Assembly: GCA_046497275.1 (NCBI GenBank)
Contig: JAWOFX010000061.1
Span: 1 to 32,000, forward strand
DNA from: Promethearchaeia archaeon
GTDB lineage: Archaea > Asgardarchaeota > Lokiarchaeia > Sigyniarchaeales > SOKP01
Length of the DNA stretch: 32,000 nucleotides
Reading direction: 5' to 3'
Shown here in pieces: positions 5,259-15,382 of this stretch. Below the pieces are notes generated by a model that searched no databases, was not told the origin of the DNA, and was given only the letters and a program-made list of their open reading frames with translations. A program made the position numbers and the translations under genes. Every line of letters begins with the position of its first letter. Positions within the stretch are counted from its first letter, which is position 1.

Positions 5259-6413
5259 ATGCAATTATCAGGTCTTATTAGAAAAGAGTTCGGGAGGATT
5301 CGGAGTGATAAACGCACGCTTATTTTATTATTTGCAATCCCACTTATCTTGATAATTGTGTTTGGATTAACGTCTGGGGGAGGTCCTACGCAGTTCTTTA
5401 ATGTTTCTATAATTTCTAAAGATAGTATGCCTACTTATGGAGATTTTCCCAATAATTCTTCTACATATGAACAAGATTTTATCTCCGTATTTGAAGGAAA
5501 TTTATCTTCCTTTGGATTTAAAGGATATGTAAATGTAACTTCAGAAGTAGAATATGAAGAAGCTAAGAATGTCTATATCGATTGGTTAAAGAACGATATA
5601 ATTGATATGTTTTTAGTGCTTCCTGAAAATTTTTCTGAGACAATTGAAAATAATACAGATATTTCTATCATTTATTATATTGATGCATCAAATACCGCAT
5701 CTGTGAGTGCTATTAATGTTACTATGTTGGAACCCATAGCTCAATTTAGAATTAAAATAGGTAAAACTGCAAACTTTACATATATAATTCCCTACTTAGA
5801 ATTCGAAGTGCCATTCTGGGAATCTCAGATTCTGAATTATGCTTTTGCTCTGACTATTCCTCTAATAATTATTGGAACTACTATGAATTTATCCTGTTTA
5901 TCTATTGTATCAGAAGGGCCATTACCTCGTATGCTGATTACACCCACCTCCAAACGATCGATCATCTTAAGTAAACTTATAGCAAATTCAGCAATAATGG
6001 CAATCCAAGTGGCTGAGATTTTTATTGCTACGGCAATATTTGGTCTATATAGTCTCGGTTCATTATTTGATTTATTTCTTGTCCTTCTTGCTGTTGGATT
6101 TTGTGGAGTATCAATAGGATTATTTATATCCTCAATAAGTGGGACAGATCAGCAAGCAAATCAGTTGTATATGGTATTTTTTATAGTAATATTGATGTTT
6201 TCGGGAACGTTCATTAGTTCTGAGAATTTACCTGGATTTATGCAAGCTATTATTTATTCATTTCCATTATATCATGCTATTCCTTTAGTTTTAAATATTA
6301 CCTTTAAGGGTTTACCATTAGATATATTCTCACTATTTAATTTATTATTAATTTCATTTGTATATATTGGATTAGCATATATTGCATATATGTTTAAAAA
6401 GGTGGAGGTCTAA
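5259..6413 (+). CDS. ABC-2 type transporter permease
   Basis: N-terminal KEFGRIRSDKRTLILLFAIP TM, extracytoplasmic domain with N-glycosylation sequons, then about 5 C-terminal TMs and the SENLPGFMQAIIYSFPLYHA motif. Confidence 0.92.
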   Translation: MQLSGLIRKEFGRIRSDKRTLILLFAIPLILIIVFGLTSGGGPTQFFNVSIISKDSMPTYGDFPNNSSTYEQDFISVFEGNLSSFGFKGYVNVTSEVEYEEAKNVYIDWLKNDIIDMFLVLPENFSETIENNTDISIIYYIDASNTASVSAINVTMLEPIAQFRIKIGKTANFTYIIPYLEFEVPFWESQILNYAFALTIPLIIIGTTMNLSCLSIVSEGPLPRMLITPTSKRSIILSKLIANSAIMAIQVAEIFIATAIFGLYSLGSLFDLFLVLLAVGFCGVSIGLFISSISGTDQQANQLYMVFFIVILMFSGTFISSENLPGFMQAIIYSFPLYHAIPLVLNITFKGLPLDIFSLFNLLLISFVYIGLAYIAYMFKKVEV

Positions 6414-7642
6414 TGGCTAAAAATAATAATTCACATAAAAGAAAATCTCTTAAAAGTGGTATTAGAGGATTTAAGAGAAGCCTCTTTCGCCTAATTAAAC
6501 AAGTTAAAAAAGAATTTAGACTTTTAAGAACTGATCCTTGGAATTTAGTAATAGCATTATTATTACCTCCAGGCATAATCATGTTATTTTCTTTTATGAA
6601 TCAAGAATCAGGAGCCCCTGCTGCATTCCCAGTTGTTGTTGTTTCCAATGATTCAAATACTTTTGTAAATCCCAATAATTATACAGAAACCACATGGGAT
6701 AATTACACTCTTTCTTATGTTGATTCTGTAAATAAAACAAACTCTTTAGATTTAATAGCCTTTTATAACACGACTAAAGAAGAGGAAATGTACGCGATGG
6801 AGGTTGCTAGAAATCTTTTATTAAATGGGGAAATTCGTTGCATCATTGTTGTTCCATTAGAATTTAGTGAAATGTTAGAGTTTGGATTACCTGCAATGAT
6901 TGAATGTATTCCAGACTCATCCAGGATAGCTGAGATTCAGAATTTGCTAAATTCGGTTTATGATTCTATTGCAATGTTTAGACAAGCTAATAATTTAACG
7001 CCCCAAATTATCCTTGAAGCAAATGAAGAATTCTCAATACCTTCTAATTTTAATGCAAAATTAAATTCAAGTTTAGTTATGATTTTACCTTTAATGATAT
7101 TTGGTATCGCATGTGTTTTGACAATTTTAGTTATAGTTAAAGAAAAACCAATAGCCCGACTATTGCTGACACCTGTAAAACGAGCGGAGGTTCTTTTATC
7201 GAAATATATCACCTATTCGGTTGTTTTATTGATACAGAATCTGCTTATAATCATAGCCTCCATTCTTGGTGGACTCTATCTAAGAGGATCCTTGTTTGAC
7301 TTCTTTATCTCAGTATATATTATAGGATATACGGGAGTTAGTCTTGGATTATTTATTAGTTCTCTTAGTAAGTCAAAAACTGAAGCAAATCAATTGTTTT
7401 TCGCTTTCTTTGTGATTATTATACTTTTGAGTGGTATATTTGTGCCACTTGGAAATATGCCTACTTATTTACAATTCTTTGCTAATATTCTGCCACTTTC
7501 CCATGGAAGTCCGATGGTTAGTGCGATCTTAGTAAAAGGTAAGTCCGTTTTCGGATTCCATTTCTTAAGTTTATTAAGTTTAAGTATAGTTCTCAATATA
7601 TTAACATTTATAATTTTTTACAAACGGAGGTATGAGGTTTAA
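6413..7642 (+). CDS. ABC-2 type transporter permease
   Basis: KKEFRLLRTDPWNLVIALLLPP, LLLTPVKRAEVLLSK, LSGIFVPLGNMPTYLQFFANILPLSH. Start overlaps the upstream stop (TAATG). Confidence 0.92.
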   Translation: MAKNNNSHKRKSLKSGIRGFKRSLFRLIKQVKKEFRLLRTDPWNLVIALLLPPGIIMLFSFMNQESGAPAAFPVVVVSNDSNTFVNPNNYTETTWDNYTLSYVDSVNKTNSLDLIAFYNTTKEEEMYAMEVARNLLLNGEIRCIIVVPLEFSEMLEFGLPAMIECIPDSSRIAEIQNLLNSVYDSIAMFRQANNLTPQIILEANEEFSIPSNFNAKLNSSLVMILPLMIFGIACVLTILVIVKEKPIARLLLTPVKRAEVLLSKYITYSVVLLIQNLLIIIASILGGLYLRGSLFDFFISVYIIGYTGVSLGLFISSLSKSKTEANQLFFAFFVIIILLSGIFVPLGNMPTYLQFFANILPLSHGSPMVSAILVKGKSVFGFHFLSLLSLSIVLNILTFIIFYKRRYEV

Positions 7643-7769
7643 TAAATTAAGATATAATTTGCTTTTAAGTTTAAATTTAGAATTAAATATTTAAAAAAAC
7701 ATATAAAAAAAATTTGATATAAATTAGTAAATATGATAAATTATTTGCATTTTGAGGAGGATATTGATT

Positions 7770-8827
7770 TTGAATCAAGTATCTGTTGATGTTAAGAATC
7801 TTAATGTGTTTTTTGGTGATTCTCAAATTATTCATGATGTATCTTTCAATGTTAAAGAAAAGGAACTAATTGGATTATTTGGAATATCTGGAGCTGGAAA
7901 GACAACTATAATTAGAGTTCTAACTTGTCAAATCAAGAAAAATAATTGGTCAGGTGATGTAATGGTCACTGGTCTTAATCCTGCTAAGAAGAGAAATCAC
8001 TCTGAGATATTGAGTAATATTGGTTATGTTCCACAGTTAGAATTACTAAATCTCTATTATGAACTTTCCCCACTCGTAAATGTGGAAATATTCGGATCAA
8101 ATTATGGGATGACAAAAGAGGAAGCAAGAAAACGTGCTAGAGATTTATTTTCTATACTTGATATTCCCGAAGATACATGGAAAAACCCACTAAAAAGTCT
8201 TAGCGGAGGGGAAAAAAAGAGAGTCTCAATGGCAATAGGGCTTATTCATAATCCGGGCGTCTTATTTTTAGATGAACCTACCACACAAATTAATTATCTC
8301 AATTAATTTGGATAAAAGGTGTAGACGCCAATAAAAGATATGATATCTTAAATTATCTTAAGAAACTTAACAAAAAACTGGGAACTACAATGTTTATTAT
8401 CACACATGACCTTGAAGCGGCTCTGGTATGTGATAAGACGGCCATATTAAGAGAGGGACAATTATTAGACTTTGACACACCTCAAAATTTAATTTCATCC
8501 CTACCTAGCAATGGCTTATTAGCTAGATTATCAATCGATAACCTTACGGGAGAGATCATTGATATTATAAAGGATTTCAAATATTGTGCGGAAGTTTCAC
8601 GAGTAGGGAATGATGTAGTTGAGATATTTTTAGAAGATTTTGAAGAACATCTCCTTCCGCTAATAGATTACTTACTAGAAAAAGAGATCAAGATTATTGC
8701 GATGAGTAGGGATGTCGCGAATTTTAGAAGGTATTTCCAAATTAGGATTAAAATCGAAGAAGATAAAGAAAAAAGACAATTAAGACAAAATAATTTGAAT
8801 ATTGATAAACTAGGTGAAAAAAAATAG
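7770..8827 (+). CDS. ABC transporter ATP-binding protein interrupted by a 32-nt insertion; join(7770..8284,8317..8827) gives 341 aa
   Basis: Track ORFs 7752-8306 and 8390-8827 are two halves of one ATPase. Walker A GISGAGKTT, signature LSGGEKKR and Walker B VLFLDEPTT precede the insert; GVDANKRYDIL...IITHD (D-loop and H-switch) follow it. GAGGAGG SD at 7754-7760 favours a TTG start at 7770. Confidence 0.88.
8285..8316 (+). other. 32-nt hairpin insertion, candidate bulge-helix-bulge (BHB) mRNA intron
   Basis: A-CAAATTAATT-ATCTC-AATTAATTTG-GATA-AA, containing a perfect 10-bp stem with a 5-nt loop. Removal gives ACC ACA GGT (T-T-G) in frame. The insertion is certain from the sequence; splicing is inferred. 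Confidence 0.6.
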
Positions 8828-11800
8828 ATAGAAAGAAAAAGCGTCGAATTATATATTTTTTATTAATTATTGGCCTTTTTATAGGCGAATTAATTGTTTT
8901 AGGAGTAATCAATATTCCATTTATCGAATATTTTAGTGAAGATCAAGTAAAAACTTATAAAAATGATATGGCTTATTTTTCAGGAACCCATCAAAATCCT
9001 ACTAATCGTCTCTTTATCGAACCGACCATAGATATAAATTATAAGGCAGTTGGTTCGCTAAATATTTCAAGTTCCTCATTTAATGATTCAAGTTTAATAA
9101 ACCCAAGGAATAATTCTAATTTAAGAGAAGGGCAATCACAATTTTTCTTAGATTATTTATTTGATAAACAAAATCCAGATGGATCGTTTTCTGATATTGG
9201 TGGTTTAGGAGATATGTATTCGACCTTTAAAGTTGTACAGACTATTGATGCTTTAAATAATAGCTATTTGGATGATCCCGAACACCAATCCAAGATAAAT
9301 AAAATTATAGATTATGTTAATAATTCCTTAGATGACGGGGGATATGGATATAAGAACAATGATCAAGCTCCTGAAGCTGATATTGTTTCAACTTATTATG
9401 CGATAAAATTGGCAAAACGATTAAATGCGAATTCTATATTAAAAAATAATAATGACACCATCATAGAATATATAGAATCATTGGGGAATTATACAGTGGA
9501 TTTTTCAGGTACTTATCGATTTTCTAATAATAGCTATATCATTACTGCCGAAACAACATATTTTGGTATCCGATCATATTTAGAAATGAATGAAACTTAT
9601 ACAAATTTCGAGGAATTATCAATAGAAATATTTTATTATAATCTTTTTAATATTGATGGTGGATATAGTTCCGCATTACTAAGTTCTATTTCAGATATGA
9701 GTGCCACTTTTTATTCCATGTGGATTTTATATTATTTTAATAACCATAGCGTAATTCCTTCTCAAACACAAAACTATATTCAAAATTGTAGTAAATCTGA
9801 TGGTGGTTTTGGTCCAACACCATATTTGAATTCAACCTCAAATTTCAATTCAGGCTGGGCAGCAATGAAATCAATCTCTCTTTTAGAAATTAATGAGACA
9901 GATGTAACTATTAGATTCAACAGTTCTTATAAATTGAACTATTATGACTGGTTATATGGATATCAAGCTATAAATGGATTATTTGGACAAATATCACTTC
10001 AAACTAATTATCTTGGAGTATTGGCGCTTTATAATTATAATTCAGAGACCTTTAACGAGAATATTGATATGAATAAGATCTTAAATTTTGCAAATTCTTG
10101 CTATAATCCAGAAGATGGGGGATTTGGTTCTGAACCTTTTACAAACTCTTCCATATTTTCAACTTACTGTGCTGTTTTTCTGTATCAAAAATTCGAACCT
10201 TACACTTTGCAAAAACTCCCTAACACTACCGCAACCGTAAATTTTTTGGTAAGATTACAGAACCCTGATGGGGGATTCAAATTAGGAGAAGACCTTAATG
10301 TTATCTTATCATATTTCGGTCCAGCATATGAATTATTCCTCGATTTTATCAATACAAATATTTCCACAACAGAGAGTACATATTGGGCTATAAAAAGTTT
10401 AGATGAATTAAATTCGCTTAATTTAATAAATCAATTTACTATTACACATTGGATATCTTCAGGGCAAAACGCAGATGGAGGATTTTCTATAATTCATGGA
10501 TTTCATTCTGATGTGATCTCTACTTATTATGGTTTGGAAATTCATAAAATACTTAATATAAAACCTTTATCTAGAATCGCGGCTATAGAATTCTTGAAAG
10601 GAGCTCAATCTGAGGATGGTAGCTTTACTATTATTCCTTTTCTTTCAATTCTTATTGAAGTCCCTTCATCATTTATAGCAACATATTTAGGTTCAATAGC
10701 TCTTTATGAATATCGTTCACAGCCAGAAAATATCAAAACTTTAACTATATGGTACAGAAATTGCATAAGTCAAAAAACAGGAGGGGTTGGAGATATTCCA
10801 AATTTTGGAGGAGATTTACGCAACACTCCTTATGGTTTAGTTATTATAGACGAAATTCGATTTGATCAAGCTTTTGATCCACAACCATGGAATAATCTCC
10901 TTATATGGTTAATGATCTCGGAAGTTTTAATTTTAGTTGCTTTTATTGTTCTCAGCCTAATTTCTTATTTAAACACAAGAGTTATCAAATTCCTTAAATC
11001 CTTAATCGGAATGGCTGAAAAATTAAATATCAATTATCTAAAAAAATTTCCTGCTGTTTATTGTGAAAATTTAAATATTTATATCGGTAAGAAATTAATA
11101 GTTGATGGAGTGTCACTTGAATTGCAGCATGGAGAAATTTTAGGTGTCTTAGGAGAAAGTGGTGCGGGAAAATCAACTTTTGTTAAAAGCTTATTAGGAA
11201 TGCGAAAATATACAGGGATTTGTGAGTTATACGGGATGGATGTTAAAAAGAATAAAAGAAAGATGAGACCCATTTATGGATATGTCCCCCAAGATCTTGG
11301 AAAAATTTATACCAACTTTACGACCCTTCAAAATTTGATTTATTTCGGAAAACAATATGGATTAACTGAAAAAGAAATTGTTAGTAGGGCAAAAAGGCTT
11401 CTAAGAAGTCTAGAAATTGAAGACAAAATGAATGAATTAGTAAAAAATTTATCCGGTGGGCAAAAGCGTAGAGTGAGTATTGCGATGGGCTTAATTCATA
11501 ATCCAATCTTTTGCATTCTTGATGAACCTACATCAGGTTTGGACCCGCTGATAAGAGAACAATTGTGGCTATCTCTTACACAAATCAATGAAAAATATAA
11601 TACTACTTTAATCGTAATTAGTCATTATCCAGAAGAATCAAGATTTTGTAATAAAGTTGTTGTGTTCGGAAGAGGTCGAGGTATGATTGATTTTGGAACA
11701 CCTGAACAGTTATTATCGCAATTACCTGGGGGTGGAAGAACGATTGAACTCTATTTTTATGATAGTCAAGAAAATGCCTTAGAGAGATTAGAAAAGATAC

Positions 11801-11994
11801 CAGGTATCGAAGAAGCACTTGAAAATAAGGCAGGGACAGATTTTGCGATTTTAACAGATCTTAATCTTAATGAAGTCAGAGTGGATTTAGAGAAAGAATT
11901 TGGGGAAAATAGTATTCTTGGCCTAAAACAATCTGATACTGTGATGGAGCAATACTTCAGATATCGAGCTATGGAGGTGCCCGAGATTGAGTAG
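8824..11994 (+). CDS. Fusion protein: N-terminal TM, extracellular prenyltransferase/squalene-oxidase-type repeats, TM, ABC ATPase; probable start ATA 8824 (track start 8968 is internal)
   Basis: The frame is open from 8818 (IDRKKKRRIIYFLLIIGLFIGELIVLGVINIPF = basic patch plus TM). About 10 QNxDG(G/S)F-type repeats, each followed by an S/T-x-(Y/F) helix. TM near 10900-10970, then intact Walker A GESGAGKST, LSGGQKRR, CILDEPTSGLDP and VISH. Confidence 0.85.
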   Translation: MDRKKKRRIIYFLLIIGLFIGELIVLGVINIPFIEYFSEDQVKTYKNDMAYFSGTHQNPTNRLFIEPTIDINYKAVGSLNISSSSFNDSSLINPRNNSNLREGQSQFFLDYLFDKQNPDGSFSDIGGLGDMYSTFKVVQTIDALNNSYLDDPEHQSKINKIIDYVNNSLDDGGYGYKNNDQAPEADIVSTYYAIKLAKRLNANSILKNNNDTIIEYIESLGNYTVDFSGTYRFSNNSYIITAETTYFGIRSYLEMNETYTNFEELSIEIFYYNLFNIDGGYSSALLSSISDMSATFYSMWILYYFNNHSVIPSQTQNYIQNCSKSDGGFGPTPYLNSTSNFNSGWAAMKSISLLEINETDVTIRFNSSYKLNYYDWLYGYQAINGLFGQISLQTNYLGVLALYNYNSETFNENIDMNKILNFANSCYNPEDGGFGSEPFTNSSIFSTYCAVFLYQKFEPYTLQKLPNTTATVNFLVRLQNPDGGFKLGEDLNVILSYFGPAYELFLDFINTNISTTESTYWAIKSLDELNSLNLINQFTITHWISSGQNADGGFSIIHGFHSDVISTYYGLEIHKILNIKPLSRIAAIEFLKGAQSEDGSFTIIPFLSILIEVPSSFIATYLGSIALYEYRSQPENIKTLTIWYRNCISQKTGGVGDIPNFGGDLRNTPYGLVIIDEIRFDQAFDPQPWNNLLIWLMISEVLILVAFIVLSLISYLNTRVIKFLKSLIGMAEKLNINYLKKFPAVYCENLNIYIGKKLIVDGVSLELQHGEILGVLGESGAGKSTFVKSLLGMRKYTGICELYGMDVKKNKRKMRPIYGYVPQDLGKIYTNFTTLQNLIYFGKQYGLTEKEIVSRAKRLLRSLEIEDKMNELVKNLSGGQKRRVSIAMGLIHNPIFCILDEPTSGLDPLIREQLWLSLTQINEKYNTTLIVISHYPEESRFCNKVVVFGRGRGMIDFGTPEQLLSQLPGGGRTIELYFYDSQENALERLEKIPGIEEALENKAGTDFAILTDLNLNEVRVDLEKEFGENSILGLKQSDTVMEQYFRYRAMEVPEIE

Positions 11995-13702
11995 AAACAA
12001 AAATCAAGAGTTGGATTTACTTCGACAGAAAATAATAGAAGCAATTCGATTTTCTGAGAAATATTGGATGATTTACAGACAAAACACATTTGGTTTAGCC
12101 ACTGTTCTGGATTTAGAGTATAAAAGAAGTTTTATTGAAGTATTGTTCTTTACAAATAAGGATGTATTAGAAAAAGGAGTACCATTATTAAAAATTAATA
12201 CTCCTATTGAAACGAATGTAGATTTTAATGAAATTCTCGTTGAGCCAGATTTTGGAGAAGATGGATTGATAAGTCCAAGAAAAGTTATCCAGAGAATTGA
12301 TAAACTAATCGAGAGAGAATTTCAGCATCATTTAGAAATATTGAATAAGGAGATGGAATTATTAGAAAATGAATTTGAAACTAACCAAGTTGATCAAATT
12401 CCCTATCACCGAAAGATAATAATTTATTTTCCAAGATTTAACATTGATTTAACTGTTAATTTTGAAAATTATCCACTCCGACCCATTTTTGGTTTCTCAA
12501 GATTCCTTGAACGTATTATAGCTTTGAAAGAATTATTAGAAATGAATATTATGAAAGAATGGGATGATCTTAATCCTCCTCATATAGTAGATGTTATTGA
12601 GAAATTAATTGAGAAGATTATATCAATTCTAAAAATTAGAGATTATTTTAAGAACTTTCAACACTTATTATTAAAAAATGTCTCCATCAGTAAAGATTTA
12701 GAAGATATCAGCTTTAAATTAACAAGAGGACAATCAATTGGAATATTATATGAAGGACTACCTGATTCAAGCAAAGAACAAATTAATATTATGAGATTAT
12801 TTTCCGCTATTGCTGGAGAAAATGATCAATTTTCTGGCACAATAAAAATATTCGGGAAATTTGTCCAACTAGCCTCAGAAGCTGAATTAGCCCCGATATT
12901 CATAATTCCTGAAGCAATTGATTCTAAAATGGCAAATATGAAGATTAAAAAAGCAGTGAAACATGAAGTTAAAATTAAAATAACAGATAAAACTAGTAAA
13001 GAAGATTTTTTACAAATTTTGGAAGATGCAGATTTAACAACTCTAATTGATGAATGGATGGTAAAAGGACCATTTTGGAAGAGTCTCTCAATTTTAAAGG
13101 ATTATAGAGATAAAAGAGCCCTCAGAATAAAAGTTCTGAAGATAACGGGCTTATATAATAAAAGGAAATTAATGGTCTCGGAATTAAAAGCTCTTGATTA
13201 TTTTCTTTTTTGCATTGCACGTGCCCTTATTCAATCGCCAGATATTATTATGTTTTCTCTCCCTAAAGGAATTTTAAATAGATTGCAGTTTGAAAAATTT
13301 AAAAAATATTTAAAAAATATTAAAAAGACATTTCATGTTGCTATTTTAATTCATGGTCCTGAAAATATTATTTCTGAATGCGATAAAATATTGACCATTA
13401 CAGAGAAAGCAGTAGAAAGTGGAACGAAAAAAGAATTGATTGATAAGATCCCTCAGTCGGGTGAATTAATATCGGTTGAATTGAATTATCCTCATGAAGA
13501 GGCAATTCAAGAATTATTTAAATTAGAATCAGCAATAGTTATTGAAGAAAGAAAGAATGAAAAATACAAGTTATTTCCTAAAGAAGATCCGGATAAATTG
13601 GTAAAAAAATTAATTCATTTATTTGGACCGGATCTATATAGCTTTAAAAGATATAGAGCGAGTTTAGGAGAGTTTGCCCAATTTTTAGAAATAACACATT
13701 AA
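11987..13702 (+). CDS. Degenerate ABC ATPase-like protein with N-terminal UEV/RWD(E2)-like region
   Basis: TTG start after GGAGGTG. The C-terminal part follows the ABC layout (LEDISFKLTRGQSIGIL..., IARALIQSPDIIMF, ILIHG) but lacks GKS/T, LSGGQ and the Walker B DE. N-terminal IDLTVNFENYPLRPIFGF...EWDDLNPPHIVDVIEKL resembles non-catalytic E2 folds. Confidence 0.7.
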   Translation: MSRNKNQELDLLRQKIIEAIRFSEKYWMIYRQNTFGLATVLDLEYKRSFIEVLFFTNKDVLEKGVPLLKINTPIETNVDFNEILVEPDFGEDGLISPRKVIQRIDKLIEREFQHHLEILNKEMELLENEFETNQVDQIPYHRKIIIYFPRFNIDLTVNFENYPLRPIFGFSRFLERIIALKELLEMNIMKEWDDLNPPHIVDVIEKLIEKIISILKIRDYFKNFQHLLLKNVSISKDLEDISFKLTRGQSIGILYEGLPDSSKEQINIMRLFSAIAGENDQFSGTIKIFGKFVQLASEAELAPIFIIPEAIDSKMANMKIKKAVKHEVKIKITDKTSKEDFLQILEDADLTTLIDEWMVKGPFWKSLSILKDYRDKRALRIKVLKITGLYNKRKLMVSELKALDYFLFCIARALIQSPDIIMFSLPKGILNRLQFEKFKKYLKNIKKTFHVAILIHGPENIISECDKILTITEKAVESGTKKELIDKIPQSGELISVELNYPHEEAIQELFKLESAIVIEERKNEKYKLFPKEDPDKLVKKLIHLFGPDLYSFKRYRASLGEFAQFLEITH

Positions 13703-13737
13703 TATAATATGTATTGTAAAATATATGGTGAAAAATA

Positions 13738-14538
13738 TTGATTAAAAGTATTTATATATTAAAAAGAAATGGACTTTTATTATATTCGAAAAATTTTATG
13801 GAAAATCCTTATGACGACAATATTTTAATAGGGTTTTTTGCATCAGTTGCAAACTTTAGTCGTGAAGCTTTAGAAAGTGTAGTTAAATTTGTAGATCTCG
13901 GTGAGGATAACAAATTAATACTCGAACCTAAAACAGAGGAGAAGATTTTCGGGGCAGCAATAGTCAGTTCAAAAGATAATAACGAATTAATTAGTAAAAT
14001 GCTTAAAGATGTCTTACAAGATTTTATTGACGAATTCTCACCCGATTATGAACTAGAAACCATAAAAAGAAGCAATATGGACGAAATTCTGAATAATAAT
14101 ATTAAACGTTATACGACTTTTTCTCTTCCAATAAGGATTACTTTGACGTGGGTTATCTTAATTCCTTTGGCGATTTTTCTAACGATTTTGAATTTATTAG
14201 CAACTCAATATTTTATCCTGTCGGGTCTTCCAGAATTTTTTACAATACAACAAATATTAAGAAGAACAATTCCACAAATTGTTTTAATTTCATTTATAGA
14301 ATTATTTATTGTATTTGGAATAGCAAATTTCATTTCCGGATATCTTTCACTAAATTTAAAAGTTGCTTCATTTAATGCATTGATATATTTCATAATAATT
14401 CTGATATCATATTTTCTTTCCATCCAACCAGTTCTTGTGTTTGTAATTATATCTTTCTTGCCATTCATAATTATAGCATCCCTGGGTGGAGCATATTCTG
14501 GTCATAGAATTGCTGTTAAAAGAAGGATCGTGAGATAA
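13738..14538 (+). CDS. Longin-like domain protein with C-terminal multi-pass membrane region
   Basis: IKSIYILKRNGLLLYSKNF...NILIGFFASVANFSREAL is the typical Asgard longin-like N-terminus, followed by about 4 TM segments. TTG start after GGTGA. Confidence 0.72.
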   Translation: MIKSIYILKRNGLLLYSKNFMENPYDDNILIGFFASVANFSREALESVVKFVDLGEDNKLILEPKTEEKIFGAAIVSSKDNNELISKMLKDVLQDFIDEFSPDYELETIKRSNMDEILNNNIKRYTTFSLPIRITLTWVILIPLAIFLTILNLLATQYFILSGLPEFFTIQQILRRTIPQIVLISFIELFIVFGIANFISGYLSLNLKVASFNALIYFIIILISYFLSIQPVLVFVIISFLPFIIIASLGGAYSGHRIAVKRRIVR

Positions 14539-14548
14539 TTCGAGGAAA

Positions 14549-15382
14549 ATGCCATCTAATTCAGTTTTCAAAATTGATCTTCATCTACATTCATATCATT
14601 CTGATTGTGGAGGTCAATCTGTACGACAAATTTTTTCTCAAGCTAATAAAATGGGATTAGATGTTATATCCTTAACGGATCATAATACTTTCTCTGGTGT
14701 GATGAAATCCTTGGAATTAGGAGAAATTTTTGGAATTAAAGTAATCCCTGGAGTAGAACTTTCTACAGGAATTAACATTTCTGATAAAAAGATAATAGAA
14801 AGGCGAGATGTTTTGGTGTATTTTCCAAATGTGGAAAGATTTAAAATATGGGCAGAAAAAGGTTTTGATCGCACTACTCAAGATATTTTTTCAAGCGCTA
14901 ATGATAGAGAACATGATAAATATCTATGGGGTAATCTTCCAATTGAGGAAGCTTTCCAATGGGCCAGAAATAATAATGGTACAACTATTTTAGCGCACCC
15001 AGGTTATTATAATGAAGAAACTCCAGAGAAATTAATGAATCTTTTTAGAAAAGGACTTAATGGATTAGAAATTTTTAATTTGAAGTATAATAATTATCAA
15101 CATTATTCTAAGAAGTCTCTAACCGAAGTAATGTATTATTTTTTAAATAAATTGAAGGAAATTGAGAAAAATATATCATTCAATAAAAAACCAATAGCTA
15201 CAATCGGAACTGATTCTCATACACCCGATTCGATAGGATATCTCAATATTAATGAGCAATTTATAATAGATTTTTTGAGCTATTATAATAATTCAAAACG
15301 AGAGGAACTCAAAAATAGTTATGATGATCTTTTTAGCGCGATGACTAAAAAAATAATAAATTTATTAGATTTTAACGGATAA
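14549..15382 (+). CDS. PHP-domain metal-dependent phosphoesterase
   Basis: IDLHLHSYHSD, SLTDHN, IPGVELS, LAHP, GLEIFN and GTDSH metal-ligand motifs. Confidence 0.9.
   Translation: MPSNSVFKIDLHLHSYHSDCGGQSVRQIFSQANKMGLDVISLTDHNTFSGVMKSLELGEIFGIKVIPGVELSTGINISDKKIIERRDVLVYFPNVERFKIWAEKGFDRTTQDIFSSANDREHDKYLWGNLPIEEAFQWARNNNGTTILAHPGYYNEETPEKLMNLFRKGLNGLEIFNLKYNNYQHYSKKSLTEVMYYFLNKLKEIEKNISFNKKPIATIGTDSHTPDSIGYLNINEQFIIDFLSYYNNSKREELKNSYDDLFSAMTKKIINLLDFNG

Follow-up and report, generated by a model that had tools for sequence, protein, structure and literature searches.

How can a gene for an ABC ATPase give rise to a complete protein if an insert of 32 nt shifts its reading frame and brings a stop codon into it? 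The gene lies in a window of 32,000 nucleotides, by which we mean the whole stretch of DNA that was analysed (contig C59:1-32000 in the numbering used here), from a genome of 3.85 Mb with 30% GC and a completeness of 98.9% (G000). The relatives of this organism are Promethearchaeota, in agreement with the Asgard-like host assumed in the original prediction. The upstream frame of the ATPase opens at 7752 and ends with a stop at 8306, and the C-terminal half, which includes the D-loop (GVD), the H-loop (ITHD) and the C-terminal domain, is in the +2 frame and extends to 8827. Automated gene calling rendered the gene as two fragments. When the 32 nt from 8285 to 8316 were deleted, a single open frame of 347 aa was obtained, with the protein sequence ...LFLDEPT/TGVDANKRY... 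at the junction. Exon 1 (7752 to 8284, plus strand) encodes Walker A, the signature motif and Walker B up to DEPT plus the AC of the following Thr codon, and exon 2 (8317 to 8827, plus strand) supplies the third base of this codon, GVDANK..., the D-loop, the H-loop, a C-terminal regulatory-type domain and the stop codon. The N-terminal half matched the Pfam profile ABC_tran over positions 2 to 136 of 137 (E = 4.6e-24). The spliced junction, 8284 to 8317, reads ...CCTACCAC/AGGTGTAG... at the nucleotide level. We conclude with high confidence that 8285-8316 is a genuine bulge-helix-bulge (BHB) intron of an ABC-2-type transporter ATPase and is cut out of the mRNA at the BHB sites, because its removal restores the frame, orthologs carry an insert at the same site, the helices covary, exon codons are constrained, the RNA is spliced and the DNA carries the intron, the cut is canonical, EndA and RtcB are encoded in the genome and the insert is unique.

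The ATPase gene is part of a cluster of genes on the plus strand (5259 to 15382). Upstream are two ABC-2 permease-type genes (5259-6413 and 6413-7642, plus strand), and downstream is a fusion of a prenyltransferase-type alpha/alpha toroid with an ABC ATPase (8968-11994, plus strand; 1008 aa), after which an ORF of 571 aa was seen (stretch 8968-13702). The TTG codon at 7752 is the start of the longest ORF. A Shine-Dalgarno-like run, GAGGAGG, is found inside the first codons (7754-7760), and in-frame TTG codons are present just after it, at 7764 and 7770. Since the run is internal and the ATPase orthologs align only from residue 5-12 onward, 7752 seems to be too early, and TTG 7764 or 7770 is the more probable start. 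In some relatives (L004 of G003:C22, P0002 and P0003), the orthologous frame has ~530 aa rather than the ~340 aa of the others; these frames may be extended at the N-terminus or fused to a neighbouring gene.

On the plus strand, the insert folds together with its flanks into an hBHBh' motif. The outer helix h is made by ACC in exon 1 (8276-8278) and GGU in exon 2 (8318-8320), and the central 4-bp helix H by UACC of exon 1 (8279-8282) and GAUA at the 3' end of the intron (8311-8314). The inner helix h' (8286-8310) is a perfect 10-bp stem (8286-8295:8301-8310) with a loop of 5 nt. The 5' bulge is ACA (8283-8285), with the cut at 8284/8285, and the 3' bulge is AAA (8315-8317), with the cut at 8316/8317. 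Read from its 5' end, the intron comprises the third base of the 5' bulge, the whole hairpin of 25 nt, the intronic strand of the central helix and, from the 3' bulge, bases one and two. The elements follow each other as exon helix, exon/intron central helix and intron helix; the 5' bulge borders on the intron hairpin, the 3' bulge on the exon helix. This order is the topology of canonical tRNA introns. It also agrees with the description in a census of Asgard tRNAs (bioRxiv 10.64898/2026.10.13.758758). Of the four pairs between the bulges, three are formed in G000 and G002, the only copies with a C·A mismatch (8281:8312 in G000), and all four in the other 10 intron-bearing orthologs. A region of 86 nt folds with an MFE of -21.4 kcal/mol (z = -3.86), which was reached by 0 of 200 shuffles. 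In the isolated motif, the BHB fold of the G000 copy lies 3.2 kcal/mol above the free MFE; across the 12 intron-bearing copies, the difference is 0.3 to 3.2 kcal/mol. All coordinates and pairings given for insert, helices and bulges in the original prediction were correct to the base, and the expected in-frame ACC ACA GGT was indeed obtained upon removal of 8285-8316.

In Rfam, no family covers the intron; a sub-threshold match to PsrR1 on the minus strand (8182-8265) was taken as chance. The 45-nt motif had no other match of more than 18 nt in the 3.85-Mb genome and no duplication flanks the 32-nt insert. Being unique in the genome, the insert is not a repeat element, and a MITE or transposon footprint, the features of which had already been noted as absent in the original prediction, was rejected on the same two findings.

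Orthologs were searched with the exon-2 protein as the query, first in 61 relatives and, in a second round, in the complete set of 135 genomes of the family. Exon-2 orthologs were present in 68 of the 135 genomes, and the 73 orthologs counted in the following are those in which both halves could be placed exactly. An insert of 31 to 34 nt was found at the identical position and in the identical phase in 12 of the 73, G000 included, and 61 were uninterrupted, with the site reading ACN ACN GGN. The intron-bearing orthologs are spread over six genera within one family (G000, G002, G008, G017, G010, G076 and six species of genus g2). In orthologs from outside the family, the insert was absent in 7 of 7. 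The inserts are not copies of each other: two sequence types exist, which follow the two main gene clades, and the hairpin of G010 is unrelated in sequence and richer in GC, with the same architecture kept. Indeed, an inner stem of 9 to 10 bp is kept in all 12 species, the 5' bulge ACA is invariant in all 12 sequences, and the 3' bulge is always 3 nt long with a variable sequence (AAA, AAU, UCA, UGA, UUA or UAA).

Covariation was scored on nine pairs that were anchored from the ends of the motif. In these, 99% of the cells were paired compared to 84 ± 2.4% in shuffles, and 0 of 500 shuffles reached the value of the real alignment. When the partners were slid by one to three columns as a control, the paired cells fell to 12 to 54%. 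Double-sided changes occurred in five of the nine anchored pairs, and all three helices covary. The outer helix is paired in 100% of the cells and alternates between ACC:GGU, GCC:GGC and GCC:GGU, its first pair being A-U five times, G-C five times and G-U once. The central helix alternates between UACC:GGUA and (A/G)ACU:(A/G)GUU, with changes on both sides in two of its four pairs. A BHB intron in a protein-coding mRNA, as originally proposed, is therefore supported by covariation in 12 orthologs as well as by the RNA contigs described below.

The exon bases concerned occupy third positions in the codons for Glu, Pro, Thr and Gly. The third positions of the Glu and Gly codons can pair in 12 of 12 intron-bearing genes versus 34 of 61 intronless genes, and for Thr, ACC or ACT is used in 12 of 12 versus 29 of 61. 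For this difference in codon constraint, Fisher's test gave a p of 0.003, which is only indicative because the relatives are not independent. As judged from these codons, synonymous exon positions appear to be constrained only where the intron is present. A further helix of 7 bp between the two exons, GGCGUCU:AGACGCC (8256-8262:8323-8329, plus strand), had also been predicted. It is present and is part of the MFE fold, but it was found only in G000 and its nearest relative G002 and in none of the other 10 intron-bearing orthologs; it was therefore rejected as a general feature and is not part of the conserved motif. Since the two copies that have this helix are also the only ones with a weakened central helix, one may speculate that it compensates for the C·A mismatch.

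The public runs that contain this stretch include DNA runs as well as metatranscriptomes; of these, three metatranscriptome runs of one study (X23, X11 and X24) and one independent DNA run from other samples (X2) were aligned over 7700-8900, with assembled contigs as the RNA evidence. Each of the RNA runs contained one contig in which 8284 is joined to 8317 and the 32 nt are skipped. These contigs have lengths of 455 nt (7950-8436), 410 nt (8106-8547) and 151 nt; the skipped segment has the ends AC..AA, the junction has an ambiguity of 1 nt (A/A), and elsewhere there were 0 mismatches to the window. The DNA run yielded one contig (7733-8886), in which the insert was kept, with 0 differences. 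On the contigs of this one RNA study, the 32 nt are excised behind nucleotide 2 of each bulge, and thus at the canonical site, between residues 2 and 3, that had been postulated. An unspliced RNA contig was not found in the three RNA runs, although contigs cannot give ratios. There was no indication of regulated splicing in the RNA contigs of the three runs, and we infer that splicing of the ATPase mRNA is constitutive. The idea that splicing "gates" the expression of the transporter found no support: the spliced form was the only one among the RNA contigs, and no finding points to regulation.

If an intronless allele of the same species existed in the salt-lake samples, its DNA or RNA could account for the spliced form in the RNA libraries, and the intron-bearing copy would remain unspliced. 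RNA libraries can contain DNA, the DNA run came from other samples, and the presence of the intron does differ between close relatives, the intron-bearing L017 being nearly identical to the intronless L065 (branch lengths of 0.014 each). However, the RNA contigs agree with the window at 100% identity over as many as 455 nt, and the insert is kept in the DNA examined and in the sister species G002. Furthermore, when the closest intronless ortholog was used as the query against 5.8 billion proteins, none of the best 120 matches, which were also subject to length rules, was full length and more than 78% identical to the spliced product; an intronless allele of this species was thus not apparent. 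Finally, covariation and exon codon constraint speak for selection on the RNA structure, which makes no sense unless the RNA is processed. We therefore consider an intronless allele improbable as the source of the spliced contigs and prefer removal of the intron from the RNA.

The skip of 32 nt could also have been produced by template switching during reverse transcription or by the assembly, or the insert could be bypassed by the ribosome. A reverse transcriptase can skip strong hairpins and the evidence consists of contigs, but the skip extends beyond the hairpin (8286-8310), by 1 nt on the 5' side and by 6 nt on the 3' side, up to the BHB cut sites, and this lack of coincidence with the base of the hairpin argues against skipping by the enzyme. 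The repeat at the junction is only 1 nt, the junction is identical in three runs and the skipped product is the sequence of the intronless orthologs. Ribosomal bypass cannot by itself explain the data, as the insert is already missing from the RNA; a programmed frameshift or translational bypass was rejected on the same RNA contigs. Taken together, this makes an artefact or a bypass very unlikely, and splicing of the mRNA is the reading that we retain.

Which enzymes could remove the intron? The genome carrying the window has two EndA genes (L021:1168-1770 and L022:1216-1815), coding for proteins of 201 and 200 aa, each with an N-terminal PF02778 domain and a catalytic PF01974 domain (102.9 and 70.3 bits for the latter). 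The paralogues are 28% identical, and pairwise alignment revealed a His in L021 that has no counterpart at that place in L022. We take this residue to be the catalytic His. The two paralogues suggest a heterotetramer of the (αβ)2 type. As published, (αβ)2 EndA accepts relaxed BHB motifs (PMC5829648), and most Asgard genomes carry two EndA paralogues and are rich in tRNA introns (bioRxiv 10.64898/2026.10.13.758758). Two genes for RtcB were also found (PF01139 at 571 and 553 bits), and the host thus encodes both EndA and an RtcB-type ligase. On the basis of these gene assignments, EndA and RtcB would be the enzymes that act on the ATPase mRNA. Since their role is deduced from sequence, the intron could be real and removed by some other machinery. 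This is highly unlikely: a group I or II ribozyme would need far more than 32 nt; the geometry, the cut positions and the covariation are those of EndA substrates; and EndA and RtcB are each present in two copies. EndA and RtcB remain our candidates for the splicing reaction.

That the gene is a decaying pseudogene hit by a small palindromic insertion or a transposon footprint, a reading suggested by the frameshift, the stop codon in the insert and the two fragments returned by gene callers, is extremely unlikely, since both halves of the gene are intact and conserved, 12 species of six genera have the insert at the identical site with compensatory changes, and the insert is without a second copy in the genome and absent from the RNA.

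We propose the following course of events. The ATPase gene would be transcribed together with the rest of the ABC-2 cluster, and the transcript would fold such that ACC-UACC of exon 1 pairs with GGU of exon 2 and with GAUA at the 3' end of the intron. This fold would leave two bulges of 3 nt on opposite strands, 4 bp apart, above the 10-bp intron hairpin. EndA, probably an (αβ)2 enzyme built from the two paralogues, would cut after the second base of each bulge (8284/8285 and 8316/8317), and an RtcB-type ligase would then join the exons to ...ACC AC/A GGU..., which encodes DEPTTGVD. Translation of the spliced mRNA would yield the full ATPase. On unspliced RNA, translation would end seven codons into the insert and give an ATPase of 184 aa without D-loop, H-loop and C-terminal domain; because the unspliced product would be such a fragment, splicing should be needed for a working ATPase.

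In a maximum-likelihood tree of the 73 proteins, the presence of the intron requires 10 changes, at least 8 of which are forced by well-supported branches. Intron presence was no more clustered on the tree than random labels (76 of 500 shuffles were as low). Since the sequence type of the intron follows the gene clades, we favour an intron that was acquired once, early in the family, and then lost precisely on many occasions. The unrelated sequence of the G010 hairpin hints at repeated gain at a site that offers the exon half of a BHB. For the cbf5 intron, loss via a cDNA of the spliced mRNA has been suggested (PMC2738675, Yokobori 2009). The genome carrying the window contains two reverse-transcriptase (RVT_1) domains in open frames of ~1025 aa (G000:C81:1063-1812, minus strand, and G000:C10:2966-3724, plus strand), and these could be relevant to cDNA-mediated intron loss.

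Does the ATPase gene stand alone in its genome? The genome scan for genes split by BHB introns that had been recommended brought up two further cases, but the scans were noisy and gave no reliable genome-wide count. The second candidate is an insert of 30 nt (G000:C111:36426-36455, minus strand; L092:727-756) with the bulges AAA and AGA and a 9-bp hairpin. It splits a gene of the UbiA family of prenyltransferases, with Pfam UbiA positions 3-48 matched by exon 1 and 53-231 by exon 2, and the junction reads ...DIYDVEID/KINRPERP.... The third candidate, of 31 nt with the bulges ATT and AAA (G000:C46:5373-5403, plus strand; L093:324-354), is in a cdhA-like gene, where it joins a frame of 85 codons to a Prismane/CO-dehydrogenase frame of 710 codons (...PFYMPICD/MCCLCTFGKC...). 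Exon 2 alone was confirmed by Pfam; since exon 1 gave no Pfam match, this case stays a candidate.

Structure alone cannot find such introns in a genome of 30% GC. A descriptor that used only structure (ACA...AAA bulges, 4-bp helix, hairpin) had 122 matches in the genome and 119 to 184 in decoys of the same composition, that is, there was no enrichment. When BHB motifs were combined with the joining of ORFs, thousands of matches were obtained, dominated by chance fusions of adjacent genes on the same strand, and only three cases were convincing. A test for inserts spanned by paralogues gave 28 candidates, mostly weak structures beside short frames, and probably including frameshifted pseudogenes. 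ARAGORN called only 25 tRNA genes in G000, 13 of them with introns, a set too incomplete for a comparison of tRNA and mRNA introns. Many tRNA genes of this genome are probably hidden by multiple or noncanonical introns, as has been reported for Asgard archaea (bioRxiv 10.64898/2026.10.13.758758). The evidence for widespread splicing of mRNAs in this analysis consists of three genes of G000, that is, the ABC ATPase, the UbiA-family gene and the cdhA-like candidate. On balance, we lean towards the view that mRNAs are routinely spliced throughout the genome by the tRNA-splicing machinery in Loki-type Asgard archaea, with dozens of BHB introns of ~30 nt in unrelated genes, a fast turnover of these introns by repeated loss or gain, precise and at fixed sites, and exon codons that coevolve with the intron structure.

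The known BHB intron of a coding sequence is the one in the cbf5 pre-mRNA of Crenarchaeota (Desulfurococcales and Sulfolobales), reportedly described by Watanabe in 2002 and by Yoshinari in 2006. Like the ATPase intron, it is short, of the BHB type and placed at a motif that matters for catalysis. It is associated with a hetero-oligomeric EndA of the (αβ)2 type, its cuts fall between the second and third bulge residues (PMC2738675), and it has a patchy distribution, which was explained there by gain and secondary losses (PMC2738675). The host genes differ: cbf5 codes for an RNA pseudouridine synthase and is interrupted at the codon of a catalytic Asp in Crenarchaeota, whereas the gene studied here codes for an ABC ATPase of Promethearchaeota (Asgard). 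The sequences of the two introns are unrelated, and descent from the cbf5 intron family was rejected in view of host gene and host. Also, the evidence for cbf5 comes from RT-PCR or in vitro cleavage and that for the ATPase intron from sequence comparison and metatranscriptomes. With the BHB introns of archaeal tRNAs and rRNAs, the ATPase intron shares bulges of 3 nt, placed on opposite strands of a 4-bp helix, the flanking helices h and h' and the same predicted enzymes. The hBHBh' motif of those introns is said to have been defined by Marck and Grosjean in 2003. The difference is that the host RNA is an mRNA, so that the bases in question have to serve both the code for the protein and the structure of the RNA. 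In Haloferax volcanii, a BHB element in the HVO_1309 mRNA is processed by EndA according to circRNA sequencing and in vitro cleavage (Schwarz et al. 2020, PMC7714728), but this intron has 46 nt and lies in the 5' UTR, where it leaves the reading frame uninterrupted, whereas the ATPase intron splits the coding sequence. According to the same 2020 paper, cbf5 was the only such mRNA case before the Haloferax 5'-UTR intron (PMC7714728), and a structural paper on EndA from 2025 still refers to the cbf5 papers alone. Full-text searches of the literature revealed no report of BHB introns in protein-coding genes of Asgard archaea.

With the ATPase intron, the kind of element known from cbf5 is extended to another gene and another phylum. 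As far as we found, published splicing of a coding sequence by the endonuclease in archaea is limited to cbf5, with the 5'-UTR case of Haloferax in addition. The ATPase intron is the second case, in an unrelated gene and in the phylum closest to eukaryotes, with covariation in 12 species and an exact RNA junction. Gene callers will split or discard genes that are interrupted in this way, which affects annotations and metabolic reconstructions of Asgard archaea. The coding bases of an mRNA can be constrained twice, by the protein that they encode and by the BHB structure. The ATPase intron with its flanks also offers a simple test substrate of ~90 nt for the two-subunit EndA of Asgard archaea. 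Gain or loss of BHB introns in messages is so frequent that the spread and disappearance of prokaryotic introns can be studied with them. If splicing of messages is indeed routine in these organisms, the closest archaeal relatives of eukaryotes would already depend on the posttranscriptional removal of introns from their messages.
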